The notes below the pieces were generated by a model. The model made no database searches. It saw only the letters and a program-made list of their open reading frames with translations, and had not been told where the DNA came from. DNA of 15,734 nt from Nymphon striatum. Its lineage: Eukaryota. The position numbers and the translations under genes are program-made. Shown here piece after piece: positions 2,396-15,734 of this stretch (position 1 is its first letter; each line of letters starts with the position of its first letter). The stretch is from the NCBI GenBank assembly GCA_016618385.1, contig JABFOP010000225.1:1-15734 (forward strand), read 5' to 3'.

Positions 2396-3010
2396 CAGTT
2401 CTCAGGCACAGATACACATGAACAGATATGCGGTGATTTCCAAGTGCCTACTCAATGTCTAAAGCGAAGGAAGAGAAAATAAATAATTACGAAGCACTCC
2501 TGCCAATATGGTTCGGTGCACGTGGAGCTGTAGGTCCAGAAGCTATTTCTATTCTATATAATAAATTCAATTTGAAGAATGACTTTTTAAATGAAATCTC
2601 CATAAAAATACTTAAAACATGCTTACAGCTATATTTTCATGTAATTCACGCTTGATTTTTAATGTTCATTTTTATAATGTTCATTTATTAAAATTTCTAT
2701 AATATGTTTTATCATTTTATTCATATTATCTCGCCATTGTTATCATTTTTCTTTTTTGTCCTTTCTTTTCTTTTCATTGATTTGTGTTATTTTCATGACA
2801 ATCTATTTTTTTGTATGGCTTTGTAAGCTGCTTTTTATATAAATAAAAAGATTTTTCTTCTCTCTAGTCTGAGACAGCTGATGTATAACGTTTAAGATTG
2901 AATTTGTGGATCAAAACGCCAAACAATAATATCCTTCTTCCTCAATCTTTCTGAAAGTCTGAATAGGAAGATAGAGGACGACTGAAAATGAGAATTTAAG
3001 CTTAAACCCA

Positions 3011-3042: not shown

Positions 3043-3469
3043 CTTCTTAGACACTAAGAAGAAGAGATTATCGAAAAGAAAAATCACATGAAGAAAGGTC
3101 CCTCAACCTACACTCCGGCAAACCAGTGTGAAAGCCACTTGTCTAAGCTATAGATATTTTATACACACGTATAACACTTCAGTTTGCAAAAGTGCTGTAC
3201 TGTGTGCATTATTTTGTGATAGAATAAGTTTGGTTTCTAGCTTTTGCCAAACCTATGCTATTCTCCAACCATTCTGAAAGTTCATGTAAGAGGATGGAAA
3301 AATACTCCAACACTAAAGAAAGCCCAGATTGTTGAGTGGTATAAGATCTTTCTGGGCCAGATTGACCCAGGCCCGAATTTCATTCCACCCTTTCATCCTT
3401 TACGTTGTGTATTTATCATACGTTCCTCTCTGAAACTTGATGCATGTTGGCTTAGGATATAGAGGATAT

Positions 3470-3598
3470 GGAATGAGTGCCCGTTGGATACATCAATATC
3501 ATATCCAACGGGAACGAATTTCGTATTCTGTTTATCACATAACTGGCAGATAGCTTTGAAAGTAATTAAAAATATTTATATAAAATAGATTCAGTTGC
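3470..3598. mobile_element. Right-end fragment of a MITE-like element. It comprises the terminal inverted repeat of the 'ataaacagaata' family plus the internal 'gaatgagtgcccgttgg' hairpin module.
   Basis: Seen in sequence: 'gaatttcgtattctgtttatcacataactggcagatagctttgaaagtaattaaaaatatttatataaaatagattcag' is the reverse complement of the left-TIR sequence found at 10440-10520 and 10965-11055. It is preceded by the perfect 11-bp-stem hairpin 'cccgttggata catcaatatcat atccaacggg'. Confidence 0.5.
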
Positions 3599-4397: not shown

Positions 4398-4600
4398 GTG
4401 TGAATGCTTCCCTGTATCAAATTGAATCAATTTTAAAATCTACTTTAATTAATAAATTCATTTTGTTGTATGATAAACCGAATATAAAATTCGTGACTGT
4501 TGCTTATGGGATATATGAAACTCGCCAACTTTGTTTTAATTTCAGCTCGTTCCATATATCTCATAAACAACGGGCACTCATTCTATGTCCTCTATTTATT
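4398..4600. mobile_element. Left-end fragment of the same MITE-like family. The inner TIR is diverged and the internal 'caacgggcactcattctatgtcctctat' module is present.
   Basis: Seen in sequence: 'aattgaatcaattttaaaatctactttaattaataaattcatttt' matches the TIR outer part at 10440 and 10965. 'caacgggcactcattctatgtcctctat' (4569-4596) matches 'tgcccgttgctcattctatatcctctatg' (11063-11090) and the reverse complement of 'gaatgagtgcccgttgg' (3476-3492). Confidence 0.45.
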
Positions 4601-6384: not shown

Positions 6385-6680
6385 TAATGTAAGTGTACCA
6401 CTTCACCGGGAAGTTGTCACCCTACTCTTGTTCGAATAGTGAAGTGGGTTCTATAACGTGCAGAAGGAATGGCTATCCTTTACACGGAACCTCCATTTAA
6501 CGTCCTATCTGAGGGACAGAGTATTTTCTTTCTAAAACCAACCTGCATCCAGTATCAGAGAGGAGAGCACGATAATACACAACGTAAAGGGAGAACAAGT
6601 GGTGGGGTTCGAATGAGGTTCGAACCTGGGTAATTAAAGCCGAGAATACAGATGTTAACCGCTCAGCCACTGCGCTCTTA
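6385..6680 (-). mobile_element. tRNA-derived SINE, copy 1, near full length. The Pol III A-box and B-box are in the 5' head.
   Basis: Seen in sequence: the reverse complement gives 'gagcgcagtggctgagcggttaac...cccaggttcgaacctcattcgaacc' (A-box-like TGGCTGAGCGG, B-box GGTTCGAACC). The body that follows, '...ctgatactggatgcaggttggttttagaaagaaaatactctgtccctcagataggacg...cactattcgaacaag', is shared with copies at 12250-12512 and 14333-14607. Boundaries are approximate to within 15 bp. Confidence 0.7.
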
Positions 6681-7618
6681 CAGCTCTCACTAATGCAATT
6701 CTACAATTCTCAAAGCCTGAAAACTTCAAGCCAAAAATGTCACTTTCGTGATCTAAAATCAATTATTTGTGAGATGATACAGTTGTGTATTCTTAATATT
6801 TCCTGCTCTCAGTAGTGATGTTGGTGAAAAATGCACTGCAAACTTAACTATATAAATTCATAACATTATACTATGTTCGAGTGAATCTTACATTTAAACA
6901 GTATAGTAATCGCAAATACGTTTAAAAGAAAGAGATGGAATATTGAGAAATATAGTGAGCAGCGTAAGTTTCAAAACGTTTCTGGAAATTTTCAAAATAA
7001 TTCGGAGCAACAGCAATTTTTTTCCTTGGTTTATATTTTGTTTGGTTTACATTTGAAAACTGAATAGTACTGCAGATGAATAATCTATACAGGGTTGATA
7101 TATCATCCTGAAAAGGTTTTCGATTTCATCATTTTGATGATACCAAAAAGTGTCGTCTATCAATAAATTCGTTTTCTTGAAGATATCATTCCACGCAGTG
7201 AAGAGATTAGATTATTCGCGTCAATGCCGTCAAATTCCCTTTCGTCTCTTTTCAGATATCTTATATACTCTAAAGAAACTCAAAGAGCTCAATATGTCGA
7301 AGTGATACGGCGGTGATGACTTATGGTGCCAACAATGGTTAAATGTGGATCGCGTTTGCAGCCTTACTCTGAAGTACCTACATTTTATGAATCTATCTAC
7401 GTACGTATAAAAGCATCTAGAACGATCAATTTCTATGAAAAAACATAAAAAACGTGGCACAGCATCGTTATATGTTATATGATTAATCAAGGAATATAAA
7501 TTTTCAGGAAGAGCAAACTTATATGGACTGCGAAGGCTTTTATGAAAATACCGTTCCTCTTATAACGAAGTGAATTGATGACAAAGAATAAAACAAACAT
7601 TTCATAAGCTAGGGAACC

Positions 7619-8385
7619 ATATGTGACCCGCCATAGCAAAATGAGTCGTAATTCGCACATTTACGAACTGAGCTATAGCCGATTAAAGCAAAGAAAACTT
7701 AAAATTTTCGATTTTTACGTATCTATATAAAATAAAACCCGATAATTAATTTAATGTAAAGGTTCAGTTGATTAAACCACGCTAACTTACTTAAATTTAT
7801 GTTTTTCCCGAGTTGATATTGAAACTATAATATAAAACAATGCATGAAATTAGTCAAATTACCTCATTTTCGATCATTAAACACTTTTCCGCGGAAACCC
7901 CATGAAAATTTAACATCTACAGAATCGTCTCTTTGTCTAGTTTCTAAATATATAAGGCATGTTCGGGTTTTTCCCAATATACACCAATTATCGCTCGGTA
8001 TTTCCACCGGTATTCCATAAAAAAAATGATGCTTGTTGCTAAGATCAAACCACTCCCATCGCTGATTGGCTCCCGTGGCCCACGTGACGAGAATCGCTTA
8101 CTATGTTCAGTGCTATTCATTTGATGACAGACGACAGTTCTCGTTTCACAACTTTTCACAACTTACAATTATGATGATGTTTAAGATCAATTATCTCAGA
8201 ATATTTTTCTTTTTAACTCCGATACACTGGCATCTTTAAAATGTCATAATTCGGTAACCGGTTGATGGATTGAAAAGCTGTTTGGATTTAATGAAAGCTG
8301 ACATTCTTATCTTTCTATTGGTATTTATAACTCCAAATCACAATTTTGCGAATTACGACTCATTTTGCTATGGTGGGTCACATAT
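7619..8385. mobile_element. Nonautonomous DNA-transposon-like element (767 bp) with 39-bp terminal inverted repeats and no transposase ORF
   Basis: Seen in sequence: left TIR 7619-7657 'atatgtgacccgccatagcaaaatgagtcgtaattcgca'. Right TIR 8347-8385 'tgcgaattacgactcattttgctatggtgggtcacatat', whose reverse complement is 'atatgtgacccaccatagcaaaatgagtcgtaattcgca'. That is 38 of 39 identical. The interior has only a 71-aa ORF with no recognisable domain. The interior also carries 'gctgattggctcccgtggcccacgtgac' (inverted CCAAT plus CACGTG E-box). Confidence 0.7.
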
Positions 8386-8799
8386 CATTATTATATAGGT
8401 TCACTTCAATGATGCTGCATGGTAACGCTCTAGGAAATGAGAACTACAATAGTTTTCATTAAGAGGTACTAAACTAAAATTAGATAGATACAGTACACAA
8501 CGTCACAGATCCTAAAACAAGAGTGAGCGTGTAAATTCACTCCGAATATCCCACCAAGAACTATTAAAACCGAAGGAGATTCTGTTAAAGACAATCTTCA
8601 GACTATATAAATGAATATGCATTTATTATTATTATTATTAGGTCAGTTTTACTATCAACTATTATTGTTAAACTTTGAAACATTTTGTTTTGTTAGGTTT
8701 AACAACCCACTGATGCCATGCTATAAAAGCTCATTCGGAGTTATCCTCATCTTCCTATTTAGACTTTTAAAAGGGTTGGAAAATAAAGGGATTATCTAT

Positions 8800-8912
8800 A
8801 GGAAAGATTCAGCTGAGGGAAGAACCTCCATCTTACCTTACAGCAAATCAGTGCTAATTAATGCACCGATTTCTCAAACAGAGGTGAAACCCTCTCGTCT
8901 AAGCTGTAACGG
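8800..8912 (-). repeat. Inverted copy of the uncharacterised dispersed repeat seen at 585-672
   Basis: Seen in sequence: the reverse complement of 8818-8912 contains 'aatcggtgcattaattagcactgatttgctgtaaggtaag' and 'cgttacagcttagacgagaggg', matching 586-672. It overlaps the poly-Leu ORF 8611-9015, so that ORF is not a credible gene. Confidence 0.4.
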
Positions 8913-9361: not shown

Positions 9362-9418
9362 TAATTTTAATTAATTTTCAAAGCTATCTATTGATTATGT
9401 GATAAACAGAACACCAAA
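9362..9418. mobile_element. Short degenerate fragment of the MITE-like TIR ('...ttttcaaagctatct...gtgataaacagaa')
   Basis: Seen in sequence: 'aattaattttcaaagctatctattgattatgtgataaacagaacacc' resembles the inner TIR 'ttcattttcaaagctacctgccggttgtgcgataaacagaata'. Confidence 0.3.
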
Positions 9419-10092
9419 CTCGACCACGTCGTATACAGAATATATGACGGGAACTCATCACGTATCCTCTATATACTTTTTTCTTGAAACCAGTCCCTGT
9501 ATTTGAAAGAGGCACCCCCCATAAAAAATCTTGGCTACGGGCATGACAACATTGTTTACCCATAGCGGACCTTGGATAAGCCGTTGGCCAAGTTTCATTA
9601 GTTACTAATTTGTTCCGGGTATAAACCAATTTTTACTGTAAACAATATATACGTAGTAACTAACGATCGAGAATAGAAAAGACCAACATTAACTAACATA
9701 GCCTTCATAGTTCTTCGTTCTATTTTACTTGCTATCAAGCATTTTATTAATTACTTCATTAGCTGCTTATTTGAACTGATTCTCTATCTCTTCATTGTCT
9801 TCTAAAATGTGGAGAATAGCTTCAAAATCATCTCCGAAGAAAAACAAATTGTTCATGTCAGCCATACTATAGTGTAAAATGATCTATGCTTATGAACGAT
9901 CAGTGTCACGTGATGGTGCAATTCAACCTCGAACTCCTGACAATAGGCAGTCTTTGAAGTTTGCAGGGTTTCATAACCAGTCTCCTCTATTAACTATGAT
10001 ATGATTAACGCTAGTTTTCCAACGGCAAGGTAGATTATTAGTAGAGATGGCGATGTTGAAAAGAGCTACTTAAAATTATGATATACAATACT

Positions 10093-11055
10093 TTATCGCA
10101 CAACCTTGACTTTATTGCATGCATACGGAGTTCTTATATTTCCTGTATAAGGACACGTCCCTATATTGGTGTTGATTACAGACACAGGGAGTCTGAGATT
10201 GTGAATGTTGCTTACCACAAATTTATTTTTCCTCTGTTTTTTTTTTTCCTTTCAAACACGTCGCTTCTGTATTCAGACATGAGTCATTTTTGTTTTTATC
10301 GTAACTTATCTCTCAATATATCACTCTTTCTGTTTCTCTTCTTTTCTCTATTTCATACTTTCTAACCGAGTTCTCGGAATTCATTGAAGTGTTGAAACTT
10401 TTCCCCCTCTCAACAATTTATTTTCTTTGTTTTAGCTTGACTGGCACAAAACGAATCAATTTTAAAATCTATTTTAATTAATAAATTCATTTTCAAAGCT
10501 ACCTGCCGGTTGTGCGATAAACAGAATATTTATCGCGCAACCTTGACTTTATTGCATGCATTTGGAGTTCGTATATTTCTTGTATAAGGACACGTCCCTA
10601 TATTGGTGTCGATTACAGACAGGGGAAGTCTGAGATGTTGAATGTTTATTTCTGTAAAAATGAGCTATTTTTTTTTCTACCATAAAATATTTTTCATAAC
10701 TTTCTATAATGTATAATCAAGCTATATATTTTAAAAAAAATAAAGTTATTATCTGTAAAAATGAGCTATTTTTCGTGTACTATGAATTTATTTAACAGCT
10801 GTTTTAGACCAAATTCTTTATTTCGTAACGTATTCTCTCCCAACACTCATCTTGAATTTCTTTTACATCGAGCTTCCAAACTTCACTGTCTCAAATTACA
10901 TCAAAATGTTGAAACTTTTCTTCTTTCCCTCTCAACAATTTATTAATTTTTTTTTAGCTTGACTGGCACAAAATGAATCAATTTTAAAATCTATTTTAAT
11001 TAATAAATTCATTTTCGAAGCTATCTGTCGGTTGTGCGATAAACAGAATATTAAA
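10093..11055 (+). repeat. Two-copy tandem segmental duplication, unit 1 about 10093-10520 and unit 2 about 10523-11055. Each unit is a 120-bp block ('cgcRcaaccttgactttattgcatgcat...gtctgagat') followed by a divergent spacer, then a 'gttgaaacttttc...ctctcaacaattta...agcttgactggcacaaaa' block, then the MITE left TIR.
   Basis: Seen in sequence: 10093-10213 and 10523-10640 are about 90% identical. 10380-10517 and 10905-11050 are about 90% identical. The junction 'ggttgtgcgataaa cagaata tttatcgcgcaacc' (10505-10540) is itself a 14-bp-stem palindrome. Confidence 0.65.
10440..10520 (+). mobile_element. Solo left TIR of the MITE-like family, truncated at the duplication junction
   Basis: Seen in sequence: 'gaatcaattttaaaatctattttaattaataaattcattttcaaagctacctgccggttgtgcgataaacagaata' is nearly identical to 10965-11052. 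Confidence 0.55.
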
Positions 11056-11210
11056 TTTGTGCCCGTTGCTCATTCTATATCCTCTATGTGCGTTTTTTTT
11101 TCATGTAAGATATTTTACAGTGGCTCATTGGATATTATGACTTAACTGTGAAGAATTTCGTATTCTGTTTATCACATAACCGACAGATAGCTTAGCAACT
11201 TAATTCAATT
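10965..11210 (+). mobile_element. The most complete MITE-like copy (about 245 bp). It has a left TIR, the internal 'tgcccgttgctcattctatatcctctatg' module, and a right TIR.
   Basis: Seen in sequence: left 'gaatcaattttaaaatctattttaattaataaattcattttcgaagctatctgtcggttgtgcgataaacagaata'. Right (11157-11210) 'gaatttcgtattctgtttatcacataaccgacagatagcttagcaacttaattcaatttgatac'. The reverse complement of the inner 33 bp matches the left TIR with about 2 mismatches. No coding capacity. TSD not resolved. Confidence 0.55.
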
Positions 11211-11777
11211 TGATACATGCAATGTAAGGTACCGGAGCGGAGAAAAAAGTATTTTACCATTTAGAAGTTGAATGAAGCCCCTGGGCAAAGCAGTTAATTA
11301 CTCTATTAGTTTAATTCTCTCTTTTTTTTTTCTTTCAGCCCTCTCCCATGTTGTTGTTTTGATAATGATAACTCTTGGAGGAGGAGAGAGAGGGGCCCTT
11401 CTACTTACACAATATTGTTAGGGTAAACAATTAATCTTCCCCTCTCAACTGAAAAAGAGAATTTAGCCTGAGTAGGAAAAATTCAAAGTAAACAAAAACA
11501 GCAGATTATTATGGAACGTGTCTCCATATTATATGTACGACATGCCCATAAGCACTGAATAAAGCCCAAGTACTGTGACAAATATATATGTATATATGTA
11601 TAAATATGTTGTTGTATCTCCAAGTTCCAATACGGGAGCTTCTTACAGATAATATCTATTGGAATTGCTAAGGAAAGGGGTTTGAGTTGAGGAAAGCAAC
11701 TTTCTTTTTGAAAGATTTTCTGTTCCAACTACATTTTTCCCAAGGTCCTCCACATCCGCAGTTCATACACCTTGGGT

Positions 11778-12249: not shown

Positions 12250-12512
12250 CTCACAGGTGCTACACAACACTGAGACCTTACACCCTAATGTTGTTCGAAT
12301 AGTGAAATGTGTTCTTTAACATGCAGAGGGTGTAACACTCCTCTACATGAGACCTCTGTTAATGTCCTATCCGAGGGACGGAGTATTTTCTCTCTAAAAC
12401 CAGCCTGCATTCAGTATCAGAGAGGAGAGCACAAGAATACACAACATAAAGGATGAAAGAGTGGAGGTGAACCTGGTCATTCAAGCTCAGAACAGATACC
12501 TTAACCATTCAG
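12250..12512 (-). mobile_element. tRNA-derived SINE, copy 2. The body is intact and the tRNA head is degenerate, with a deletion across the B-box.
   Basis: Seen in sequence: 'ttgttcgaatagtgaaatgtgttctttaacatgcagagggtg...cctatccgagggacggagtattttctctctaaaaccagcctgcattcagtatcagagaggagagcacaagaatacacaac' is collinear with 6421-6590 and 14360-14510. The head reads 'gagtggaggtgaacctggtcattc...' and lacks GGTTCGAA. Confidence 0.6.
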
Positions 12513-12965: not shown

Positions 12966-13832
12966 TTATTTATTTTGCTCAGACATTTCTCTAGCACGCA
13001 GTACAGCAGCTTCAAAGGCATCCATCATGGCTGATTTTAGTCCTCCTCTTGTAAGAGCATGGAATCCATGAATTGTTGTTCCTCCGGGAGAAAATATGCA
13101 ATCTGCTAATTCTGCAGGGTGCTTCCCACTTTCTTGAATCACTTTAGAAGCACCTAGTGCTACTTGAGGAGTGAGTTTAGAAGCAATGTGTACAGGCAGT
13201 CCCATTTTCACGGCACCATATGTTAATCCTTGAATACATTCATACATAAAAGCAGTTCCACTCCCTAAGGCTGCCATCAACTCAATTTGAGAATCGGTCA
13301 TTTCTTCACAAATAGCAATACCTTCAAATAACCCAAACAACAGATTTTTGTAATTAGTATTAGTTGTAGAAGATAAACAAATGCCACATATGCCTGCACC
13401 CACCTCTATTGGCACAGTTGGCATGAGGCGGACAAAATTCAATTTCAAATTGGCCTTTCCTAGCCAATTTACATGAGAGTCCATTGAAACACCAGCAGCA
13501 ACACTAACTATTACCTTATCAGAAGTATTTCGAATATTCAACTTTGACAACACATCTTTCATCAAGTATGGCTTAACTGCTAAGAAGACAACATCGCTGT
13601 TGTCAAAAACTACTTGATTATCATGAATAAAATTAACACCAAGTTGGTCGTAAACATCGCGATTACGGTCCGTCGGAGCACTTACAGTTAACCGGTCTTT
13701 ACTGACCTGCTTTTTCAGAAGAATCCCTTTAATTAAAGATCTTGCCATGTTTCCTGCTCCAATAAAACCAATATTCATGTCATTTTGAATAAAGTTGGCG
13801 ATTGACTCTTTGTCTTTGATGATGTTTTCCAT
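12966..13832 (-). CDS. PYCR3: Pyrroline-5-carboxylate reductase, PYCR3/PYCRL-like, 288 aa. It is a single exon and the coordinates include the TAA stop.
   Basis: Seen in sequence: an uninterrupted ORF that begins 'MENIIKDKESIANFIQNDMNIGFIGAGNMARS...'. Motifs: the NAD(P)-binding GFIGAGNMA; 'SAPTDRN'; 'VVFLAVKP'; 'VSVAAGVS'; 'GAVKMGLP'; and the C-terminal 'SPGGTTIHGFHALTRGGLKSAMMDAFEAAVLRAREMS'. Established knowledge: these match the P5C reductase family, and 'SAPTDRN' plus the C-terminal block are closest to the animal PYCR3 pattern. The ATG at 13830-13832 has a Kozak-like context 'cagaATGg' and an in-frame TAA 8 codons upstream. The ORF-track start at 13856 is a GTG. AATAAA is formed by the final N-K codons and overlaps the stop codon. 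Confidence 0.85.
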   Translation of the reverse strand: MENIIKDKESIANFIQNDMNIGFIGAGNMARSLIKGILLKKQVSKDRLTVSAPTDRNRDVYDQLGVNFIHDNQVVFDNSDVVFLAVKPYLMKDVLSKLNIRNTSDKVIVSVAAGVSMDSHVNWLGKANLKLNFVRLMPTVPIEVGAGICGICLSSTTNTNYKNLLFGLFEGIAICEEMTDSQIELMAALGSGTAFMYECIQGLTYGAVKMGLPVHIASKLTPQVALGASKVIQESGKHPAELADCIFSPGGTTIHGFHALTRGGLKSAMMDAFEAAVLRAREMSEQNK

Positions 13833-13887
13833 TCTGACGATTGGGTAAATGAACACTTAGCTGCCACAGAATCACCAATACATATTA

Positions 13888-14134
13888 CAGGGTGTTTCAA
13901 AATAAACAGTGCACTTAATAATGCTGTAAAAAGAAACTTTTTACGACTAAGTTATTAAAATAGAACAATTAATTTGGTTTATATAGAGCGCAGTGGCTGA
14001 GTGGTTATAATAAATGGTTAAAATAACATCTTTATTCTGGGCGTGAATAATCCAGGTTCGAATCTCATTCGAACCCTACACTCTTTCACCCTTAACGTTG
14101 TATATTCTCGTGCTCGTTTCTCTGATATTAGATG
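13888..14134 (+). repeat. Plus arm of a large inverted duplication. It is a non-SINE leader of about 95 bp plus the SINE tRNA head (SINE 5' fragment, copy 4, 13986-14134).
   Basis: Seen in sequence: 'cagggtgtttcaaaataaacagtgcacttaataatg...aatttggtttatatagagcgcagtggctgagtggtt...ccaggttcgaatctcattcgaaccctacactctttcacccttaacgttgtatattctcgtgctcgtttctctgatattagatg'. Its reverse-complement counterpart is at 14471-14682. Confidence 0.8.
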
Positions 14135-14332
14135 TGAATTACATGTATTTAGTCCTTCCTATCTATAGTCTTCGTTTTTCTTTTCACCGTGACAGGTGTC
14201 AACTTTAAGTCAGAAATTTTTGCACTATTCCATTGACCACTCTGGAATAAGTAGTGGGCTCATGGCCTATTATCAAAGGTCAACAGAGTTCGAATAAGTC
14301 CTCTGCTAAGACTCAGACGGCTTTAATGAGTT

Positions 14333-14607
14333 ATGCAGGTGCTTTACGTCACAAGGACCTTCTACAATAGTGAAATGTGTTCTTTAACGTGCAGATAGTG
14401 TGACTCTTCCTACACAGGGCCTCCATGTCCTATCCGAAGGACCGCATATTTTCCCTCTAAAACCAGCATGCATCTAATATCAGAAAGGAGAGCACGAGAA
14501 TACACAAAGTTAAGGGCGAAAGAGTGTAGGGTTCGAGTCAGATTCGAACATGGGTCATTCAAATCCAGAATAAAGATCGTATAACCAACCACTCAGCCAC
14601 CACGCTC
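14333..14607 (-). mobile_element. tRNA-derived SINE, copy 3, near full length. Its head is the minus arm of the inverted duplication.
   Basis: Seen in sequence: the reverse complement of 14520-14607 is 'gagcgtggtggctgagtggttggttatacgatctttattctggatttgaatgacccatgttcgaatctgactcgaaccctacactc' (A- and B-boxes). The body 14360-14515 is collinear with copies 1 and 2. Confidence 0.7.
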
Positions 14608-14682
14608 TATATAAACCAAATTATTTGTTCATTTTTTTTTAAACATCATTATTAAGTGCACTGTTTATTTTGAAACACCCTG
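14471..14682 (-). repeat. Minus arm of the inverted duplication (partner of 13888-14134). The spacer between the arms is 14135-14470.
   Basis: Seen in sequence: the reverse complement of 14586-14682 is 'cagggtgtttcaaaataaacagtgcacttaataatgatgtttaaaaaaaaatgaacaaataatttggtttatatagagcg', matching 13888-13990 apart from one indel of about 35 bp. The similarity continues through the SINE head to 'gatattagatg'. Confidence 0.8.
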
Positions 14683-15091
14683 TAGCCCTACATTTAAAAA
14701 TGGGTCTGGCCATACCTTTTAACATATTATATCATGGACAAGACAAGAATATAACATAAAGGCAAAGTAGTCTTTTGATAATTGGTGTAGAAAATATTGG
14801 AAGATTCAAAGAAATAGTCAAATTTATTTCTTCAATTTATCAGAAATTTATTTGTAACATTAGTTTAATTTACACATTTTGAATTAATTAATTTTTCTGT
14901 ATTAAAATAAATTAATAATAAAAGAAGTAGAAAAGAAATAGGCTGCCTTATGACAGATGGCACTTTTCTACTACAAAAAACTTACTTCAGTTTTGGAATG
15001 ATGGCACATTTCACCTGCAATATGCCATACCTAGGAATTATCTGGTATCAGGAAATGTGTCTAGAAACAGTGAAAATGAAGCTCACTATCG

Positions 15092-15109: not shown

Positions 15110-15653
15110 AAGAGAATACAGCAACTTTTCAAGTACTGGTACTATATTACTATGGCCTTAGTGAATTAAGGATTGCAGTAATATAATACACATTGACATC
15201 ATAATTTTTCTTAAAAATGCTTTGAAAAATTTGAATATAAATTTATATAACAAAATTATAAAATCAACATTCACTTTTGATGATAAATATGATTGATATT
15301 AATGACTAGTGATCAATTTTACTGGGTAAAATATAAAAAAAATATGATAAAATAAAATAAAAAGTAATAATAAATATTAAATCATTACAGATTCAAAAAT
15401 TGAAGCCAGTAAGGAATCCACTGCCTTCACGGACCAATGCACCTCATTTTTGTGAGGAAGGGCAAATACTGGAATAAAAGTAATCAGTTCTGATCAATCT
15501 AACTATTATTCTCCATTGTCAAGAAGAAAAAGCACACCATGGAACATTGGGGAAGACAGTGTCAACAACTGGCAAGAGTGTAGGAGACTTATATCATGTT
15601 AAACCCCATAAGTGGAAATACAGACTTTAATTGAAGATGATGGCAAACTATTT

Positions 15654-15717
15654 CAAACTAGAATTTGAAATTTCAATTACAAATTATAAATATTGAAATT
15701 TCAAATTCTGGTTTGAA
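15654..15717. repeat. Hairpin-forming inverted repeat. Stems are 24 bp with 1 mismatch and the loop is 14 nt. It sits at the window edge.
   Basis: Seen in sequence: 'caaactagaatttgaaatttcaat tacaaattataaat attgaaatttcaaattctggtttg'. Confidence 0.8.
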
Positions 15718-15734
15718 AAATGTGGCTATCATCT

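Follow-up and report, generated by a model that had tools for sequence, protein, structure and literature searches.

The 5' flank of a pyrroline-5-carboxylate reductase gene (P5CR) of Nymphon striatum carries a 795-bp unit with very long inverted arms (13888-14682). Judged from its sequence, this unit is probably one non-autonomous cut-and-paste DNA transposon that entered a TA dinucleotide, 55 bp ahead of the P5CR start codon. It is most likely of the Tc1/mariner type, an assignment that is made with lower confidence than the transposon model itself. Each end would consist of a transposon terminus of ~97 nt, referred to below as the leader, joined to ~140 nt of a tRNA-like SINE head. The inverted duplication that the arms represent probably arose as the mobile element formed and not at the P5CR locus. 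The boundaries of the unit, the TA dinucleotides that flank it, a gradient of conservation towards its tips, the single origin of its SINE parts and its lack of coding capacity are seen directly in the sequence. All positions given here refer to the window, that is the whole stretch of DNA analysed (15,734 nt of contig JABFOP010000225.1).

Results

Structure of the inverted repeat

The features of the unit, of the neighbouring gene and of the related SINE copies are the following (position, strand where there is one, description, basis in brackets):

3320..3456 (approximate), + strand: SINE fragment missed by the first-pass annotation, without the leader (repeats and alignment)
6418..6681, - strand: free SINE copy used as reference, without the leader (repeats and alignment)
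12281..12512, - strand: free SINE copy with a degraded head, without the leader (repeats and alignment)
12966..13832, - strand: P5CR, intronless, 288 aa (single ORF; Pfam PF03807 and PF14748; PYCR3-like homologues)
13886..13887: TA of the left flank, candidate target-site duplication (read from the sequence)
13888..13923, + strand: outermost 36 nt of the left arm, CAGGGTGTTTCAAAATAAACAGTGCACTTAATAATG, candidate transposase-binding terminus (36/36 against 14682-14647)
13888..13984, + strand: left leader, the non-SINE part of the arm, ~97 nt, AT-rich (arm alignment)
13978-13985, + strand: TTTATATA in the left leader, which is TATATAAA on the minus strand and points to P5CR
13985..14134, + strand: SINE head of the left arm (alignment to free SINE copies, TRF)
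13994-14004, + strand: A-box-like TGGCTGAGTGG of the left arm (motif)
14055-14065, + strand: B-box-like GGTTCGAATCT of the left arm (motif)
14135..14335: unique interior, without SINE similarity or coding signal (local alignment, Pfam)
14336..14470, - strand: right-hand SINE body, beyond the arm and on one side only (direct repeats shared with 6435-6605 and 12298-12467)
14471..14608, - strand: SINE head of the right arm (alignment to free copies and to the left arm)
14540-14550, - strand: B-box-like TGTTCGAATCT of the right arm (motif)
14589-14599, - strand: A box TGGCTGAGTGG of the right arm (motif)
14608-14615, + strand: outward-facing TATATAAA in the right leader (motif)
14609..14682, - strand: right leader, terminating in ...GAAACACCCTG (arm alignment)
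14683..14684: TA of the right flank, candidate target-site duplication (read from the sequence)

The first-pass annotation of this DNA had described two arms, about 90% identical in inverse orientation, and had proposed self-alignment as a check. Self-comparison of the window confirmed the inverted repeat at 13888-14134 (+) and 14471-14682 (-) and resolved it, at just the positions claimed, into three collinear inverted blocks (13886-13936/14634-14684, 92%; 13957-14006/14587-14636, 90%; 14023-14134/14471-14582, 85%). When 13888-14134 was aligned globally with the reverse-complemented 14471-14682, 189 positions matched, 23 were mismatched and 35 columns were gaps; at 89.2% of aligned bases (189/212), the identity agrees with the earlier estimate. 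The arms differ by three indels. The gap columns fall in the leader (23 nt) and in the SINE head (12 nt), in the latter case between the A and B boxes, where the left-arm version holds a 13-nt tandem duplication identified by TRF (14002-14026, TGGTTAAAATAAA, 1.9 copies). The right arm carries a different small duplication (TGGTTGGTT) at the matching point of its SINE head, and this spot between the two boxes appears to be prone to slippage.

Arm lengths are thus 212-247 nt, and the arms are separated by a spacer of 336 nt, ~200 nt of which is unique. The two halves are asymmetric: on the right the SINE runs inward past the arm to ~14336, and on the left the similarity ends abruptly at 14134. 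When folded as RNA, the 795-nt unit forms one long stem with a predicted energy of -364.8 kcal/mol, against -177.9 for shuffled sequences (z = -27.7); as DNA, the value is -197.6 kcal/mol (z = -26.5). The predicted stem of ~210-250 bp, with z of about -27, matches the potential stem of ~250 bp that had been put forward before.

The unit is small and without transposase coding capacity. Only two ORFs of at least 40 aa occur in it, of 41 and 60 aa, both inside the SINE heads, and a Pfam search of the stop-free segments detected no coding remnants in the interior. In local alignments the interior (14135-14365) scored no higher than shuffled sequences as a degraded SINE body, in either orientation; no second copy of 14135-14335 occurs within the window, and the element has no Rfam match.

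Common origin of the two arms

Each arm is composed of a leader and a SINE head, and the two parts have diverged to different extents: the leaders are identical at 70/74 positions apart from the one 23-nt indel, the SINE parts at 119/138. The common leader had been reported earlier as ~95 bp, which is corrected here to ~97 nt (13888-13984). Within the window its motifs are confined to the two arms, with 0 chance matches expected. It had also been stated that the leader is absent upstream of the SINE copies at 6680 and 12512, and this is so, the same being true of the fragment at ~3320-3456. The SINE is present in four copies in the 15.7-kb window; the fragment at ~3320-3456 (+) breaks off at 3456, where it adjoins another inverted-repeat sequence.

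Comparison with the majority of the free copies reveals five derived substitutions common to both arms, in addition to 8 private to the left arm and 12 private to the right. Both arms also have an identical leader-SINE junction, and in each an insertion follows GGTT at the same position. Because the junction, the insertion point and the five derived substitutions are common to both, the sequences indicate that a single leader-linked SINE copy gave rise to both arms. The same three observations speak, as the first-pass annotation had argued, against an independent SINE insertion for each arm. No target-site duplication of a SINE was found inside the element, and neither copy is flanked by direct repeats.

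The Pol III A and B boxes that the first-pass annotation had noticed are likewise present as A- and B-box-like motifs in both arms. Set against the generally known consensus motifs, TGGCTGAGTGG fits TRGCNNAGTGG and GGTTCGAATCT fits 10/11 positions of GGTTCGANNCC; these matches are shared by the two arms and the copy at 6681. ARAGORN predicted no tRNA gene in the SINE head and Rfam gave no tRNA match at E <= 1, so that the head is tRNA-like by its promoter boxes only.

Element ends and conservation gradient

The arms end sharply at 13888 and 14682, as inverted repeats with defined ends. The boundaries read ACATAT-TA/CAGGGTGTTTC...GAAACACCCTG/TA-GCCCTA, with termini TA/CAGGGTG...CACCCTG/TA (ends of the CAGGGTGTTTCAAAATAAAC... 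type). Beyond the TA there is no complementarity (left flank ...ACATAT against ...GTAGGGC for the reverse complement of the right flank). A TA duplication together with 5'-CAG termini is a hallmark of Tc1/mariner/pogo elements. TA is itself palindromic, and TA...TA could therefore also form the outermost 2 bp of the inverted repeat; the frequency of TA in the window is 0.086, that of TACAG ~0.002.

Conservation between the arms is strongest at the tips. The outermost 36 nt are identical at 36/36 positions, compared with 153/176 of the remaining aligned positions (~87%; Fisher p 0.017), and the probability that all 26 differences miss the first 36 columns is 0.006. Identity drops inward from 100% at the tips to 94.6% in the leader and 86.2% in the SINE part. 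CpG decay does not account for the gradient, since only 2/12 transitions are at CpG sites. Perfect tips would be expected if they are transposase-binding sites that have been kept in a lineage of transposing copies.

Several other classes of element were considered. PIF/Harbinger and piggyBac were rejected for lack of a 3-bp TWA or a TTAA duplication. A Foldback (FB) element was rejected on the structure of the arms, which are free of tandem subrepeats: TRF detected only the 13-nt duplication described above, and direct repeats within the unit amount to three short two-copy matches.

Alternative explanations

The first-pass annotation had interpreted the arms as an inverted duplication of a locus that already bore a SINE. 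The part of that claim that concerns a single origin of the arms is retained; a duplication specific to this locus is less likely in view of the TA/CAGGGTG ends and the intact 36-nt tips. In its strict form, such a duplication would be a one-off, immobile event in which the right half (14135-14682, leader and SINE) was partly copied inversely beside itself, by replication template switching or by hairpin-mediated break repair. An original and a partial copy would be expected to differ as the halves do, with a full SINE on the right and a head only on the left; within the window only the two arms carry the leader, which has no match in metagenome, viral or prokaryotic contigs, and TA...TA may simply have been copied with the rest of the segment. 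However, this scenario predicts neither that the copied segment should start at TA followed by CAG, in view of the rarity of TACAG, nor that 36-nt tips should be perfect when the rest has diverged by ~13%. Moreover, with ~11% divergence and three indels the event would have to be old, yet it would have kept precise transposon-like termini. A purely local origin is consequently judged unlikely, although it is the strongest of the competing explanations. It can also be reconciled with the preferred transposon reading: an inverted duplication probably created the element, and this need not have taken place at the present locus.

There is very little chance that the arms arose by separate tail-to-tail insertion of two members of a SINE subfamily in which the leader is a 5' extension. 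The identical leader-SINE junction in both arms would be accounted for, and SINEs are abundant here, with four in 15.7 kb. Type 2 Pol III promoters, however, direct transcription from just upstream of the A box, and a 97-nt leader lying upstream of the internal A/B-box promoter would not enter the SINE RNA. In the left copy it is the 3' side that is missing, the opposite of the outcome of retroposition; neither copy has direct target-site repeats at its borders; and the leader is missing from 3/3 free copies, while derived changes are common to the arms. It is also very unlikely that the unit belongs to another superfamily, of hAT-like type, or that it results from an assembly or fold-back artefact. 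The CAGGG terminus is typical of hAT elements too (Ac, Charlie), but a hAT-type MITE should be bordered by an 8-bp target-site duplication, and of the 8 positions that border the unit on either side only 2 agree (ACATATTA against TAGCCCTA). As to an artefact, palindromic artefacts do occur in some assemblies, but fold-backs give near-identical arms and those described here differ at 23 positions and by three indels.

The P5CR locus

The A of the P5CR start codon is at 13832, 55 nt from the left arm, as the earlier estimate of ~55 bp had it. The closest named homologues of the protein are only ~40% identical (vertebrate PYCR3), and the host lineage is therefore poorly represented in databases. 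Exact look-ups of the protein, as 288 and as 296 aa, returned no entry. The closest relative compared is a 1327-nt Logan contig (L001) with 84% amino acid identity; two further loci (L002 and L003) are at 62%. With dN/dS of 0.14 against L001 (dS ~0.62), P5CR is by its sequence intact and under purifying selection, which suggests that the insertion is tolerated.

The window and L001 are collinear over P5CR. The alignment extends from 12937 to ~13866, and weakly by eye to ~13880, which leaves 8 nt to the insertion point. No element-like sequence was detected within 300 nt upstream of the L001 ATG, an absence that is counted in favour of the transposon reading; the flank there is unalignable and so does not constitute a clean empty site. 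The distal flank aligned with the upstream region of L001 no better than shuffled sequences (104/300 shuffles score as high), and the further-upstream 268 nt of L001 show no resemblance to the element or to the distal flank. None of the L001, L002 and L003 loci resembles the element.

Each leader carries one outward TATATAAA, and the proximal one (minus strand, 13985-13978) lies 146 nt upstream of the P5CR ATG. The SINE heads are oriented towards one another. The first run of at least four T after the SINE start is at ~14175 on the plus strand of the left arm, and a TTTT occurs at ~14460 on the minus strand of the right arm. As a speculation, the element might supply the core promoter of P5CR. 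Alternatively, it could place a hairpin in a long P5CR 5' UTR, or could yield convergent Pol III transcripts. Possible roles named by the first-pass annotation are those of a promoter or insulator, of a source of hairpin or small RNAs and of a fragile site. These suggestions on promoter, hairpin and Pol III activity derive from motifs in AT-rich DNA.

Other repeats in the window

The window contains a variety of other repeats. A near-perfect palindrome with a foldback- or MITE-like appearance is located at 1734-2177; its 177-nt arms are 98% complementary and enclose an inner 42-nt arm pair and a 1-nt centre, and it has weak, sub-threshold Rfam matches to miRNA families. The 767-bp unit at 7619-8385 has 44-nt inverted ends that are 93% complementary (ATATGTGACCCGCC...GGTGGGTCACATAT) and is, from its structure, a candidate non-autonomous DNA transposon of a different family. 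The presence of these two inverted-repeat elements in the same 15.7 kb is counted in favour of the transposon reading of 13888-14682.

Direct repeats spaced by ~437 and ~522 bp, with 91-92% identity, make up a partly tandem repeat family at 10092-11068. Fragments related to it occur in both orientations at 3506-3586, 4406-4464, 9364-9435 and 11144-11223. At 15635-15734 there is a 43-nt inverted repeat, 86% complementary with a 14-nt loop and weak miRNA-like Rfam matches, which may be cut by the window edge. An inverted match of 111 nt (77%) between 583-693 and 8798-8908 probably represents two copies of another dispersed repeat. Finally, a 66-aa ORF at 2455-2655 (+) (…LLPIWFGARGAVGPEAISILYNKFNL…) is reminiscent of the C-terminal tail of retrotransposon reverse-transcriptase ORFs.

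Discussion

From the structure of the unit we infer its mobility, its superfamily and the order of the events that produced it. The first step would have been retrotransposition of a SINE into a DNA transposon, ~97 bp inward of one of its ends. This end and the adjoining SINE head could then have been copied inversely by a fold-back or template switch, for example during gap repair. The outcome would be a two-ended element that a transposase could mobilise in trans via the terminal ~36 bp.

Searches for relatives gave the following results. The window contains no second copy of the leader or of the terminus, and no autonomous element with matching TIRs and a DD(E/D) transposase. The 24-nt terminus and the leader-SINE junction have no exact match in metagenome, viral and prokaryotic contigs, collections that are not expected to hold this eukaryote. 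A SINE-derived peptide profile had no match among 5.8 billion proteins, and nothing relevant was found in the literature on the terminus or the SINE motifs.

Long-TIR MITEs of the Tc1/mariner superfamily, including CeleTc1/Tc7, Tc6 and Cele1/2, are known from C. elegans (PMC3814204). The unit is like the Tc7-type MITEs in being a sub-kb non-coding unit with very long arms, a unique spacer and a putative TA target, and in that only the outer few tens of bp need be transposon-derived. It differs from Tc7, whose structure is taken here as general background, in that the inner part of its arm is a recognisable tRNA-like SINE head, and in that the present element is known from one copy, without a cognate autonomous element.

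A precedent as regards SINE capture is MER6/MER6A, a mammalian MITE with mariner ends and a V-SINE body whose insertions lie in or near genes (PMC6887750). As proposed for the present case, Tc1/mariner-type termini are combined with a captured SINE, and SINE DNA could be spread by a cut-and-paste process. The SINE part of MER6, however, is a body and tail without a tRNA head and forms a single internal segment, whereas in the element described here the A/B-box head is present in both arms and the body on one side. A mariner-derived MITE with SINE sequence has thus already been documented.

MADE1, from which mir-548 derives, is a palindromic MITE that forms a hairpin RNA locus. A read-through transcript of the present element would similarly form a near-perfect hairpin of considerable length (z about -27). 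With more than 200 bp, its stem greatly exceeds a miRNA precursor in length. The inner part of the arms may be compared with invertebrate tRNA-derived SINEs that have conserved central domains (PMC4824008, PMC4758252, PMC11481361), on account of the A/B boxes, the conserved body and the four copies in the window. In this element, however, the head is not recognised as a tRNA by ARAGORN or Rfam.

It is very unlikely, though conceivable from the motifs present, that the element acts as a hybrid mobile unit, with ends that combine an intact, inward Pol III SINE promoter and an outward TATA box. In that case the SINE promoter would spread by cut-and-paste transposition, its transcripts (convergent or hairpin) would feed small-RNA pathways, and the element would serve as the P5CR core promoter or regulate the gene through its 5' UTR. 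The finding would be of wider interest only if the element drives or modulates P5CR expression or gives rise to small RNAs, and caution is called for before regulatory design is seen in this 5' flank. If the transposon reading is correct, the unit would be one more DNA transposon that has captured SINE sequence and carried a SINE next to a gene. In repeat annotation of this genome, the leader should then be masked as the terminus of a DNA transposon and not be treated as unique promoter DNA.
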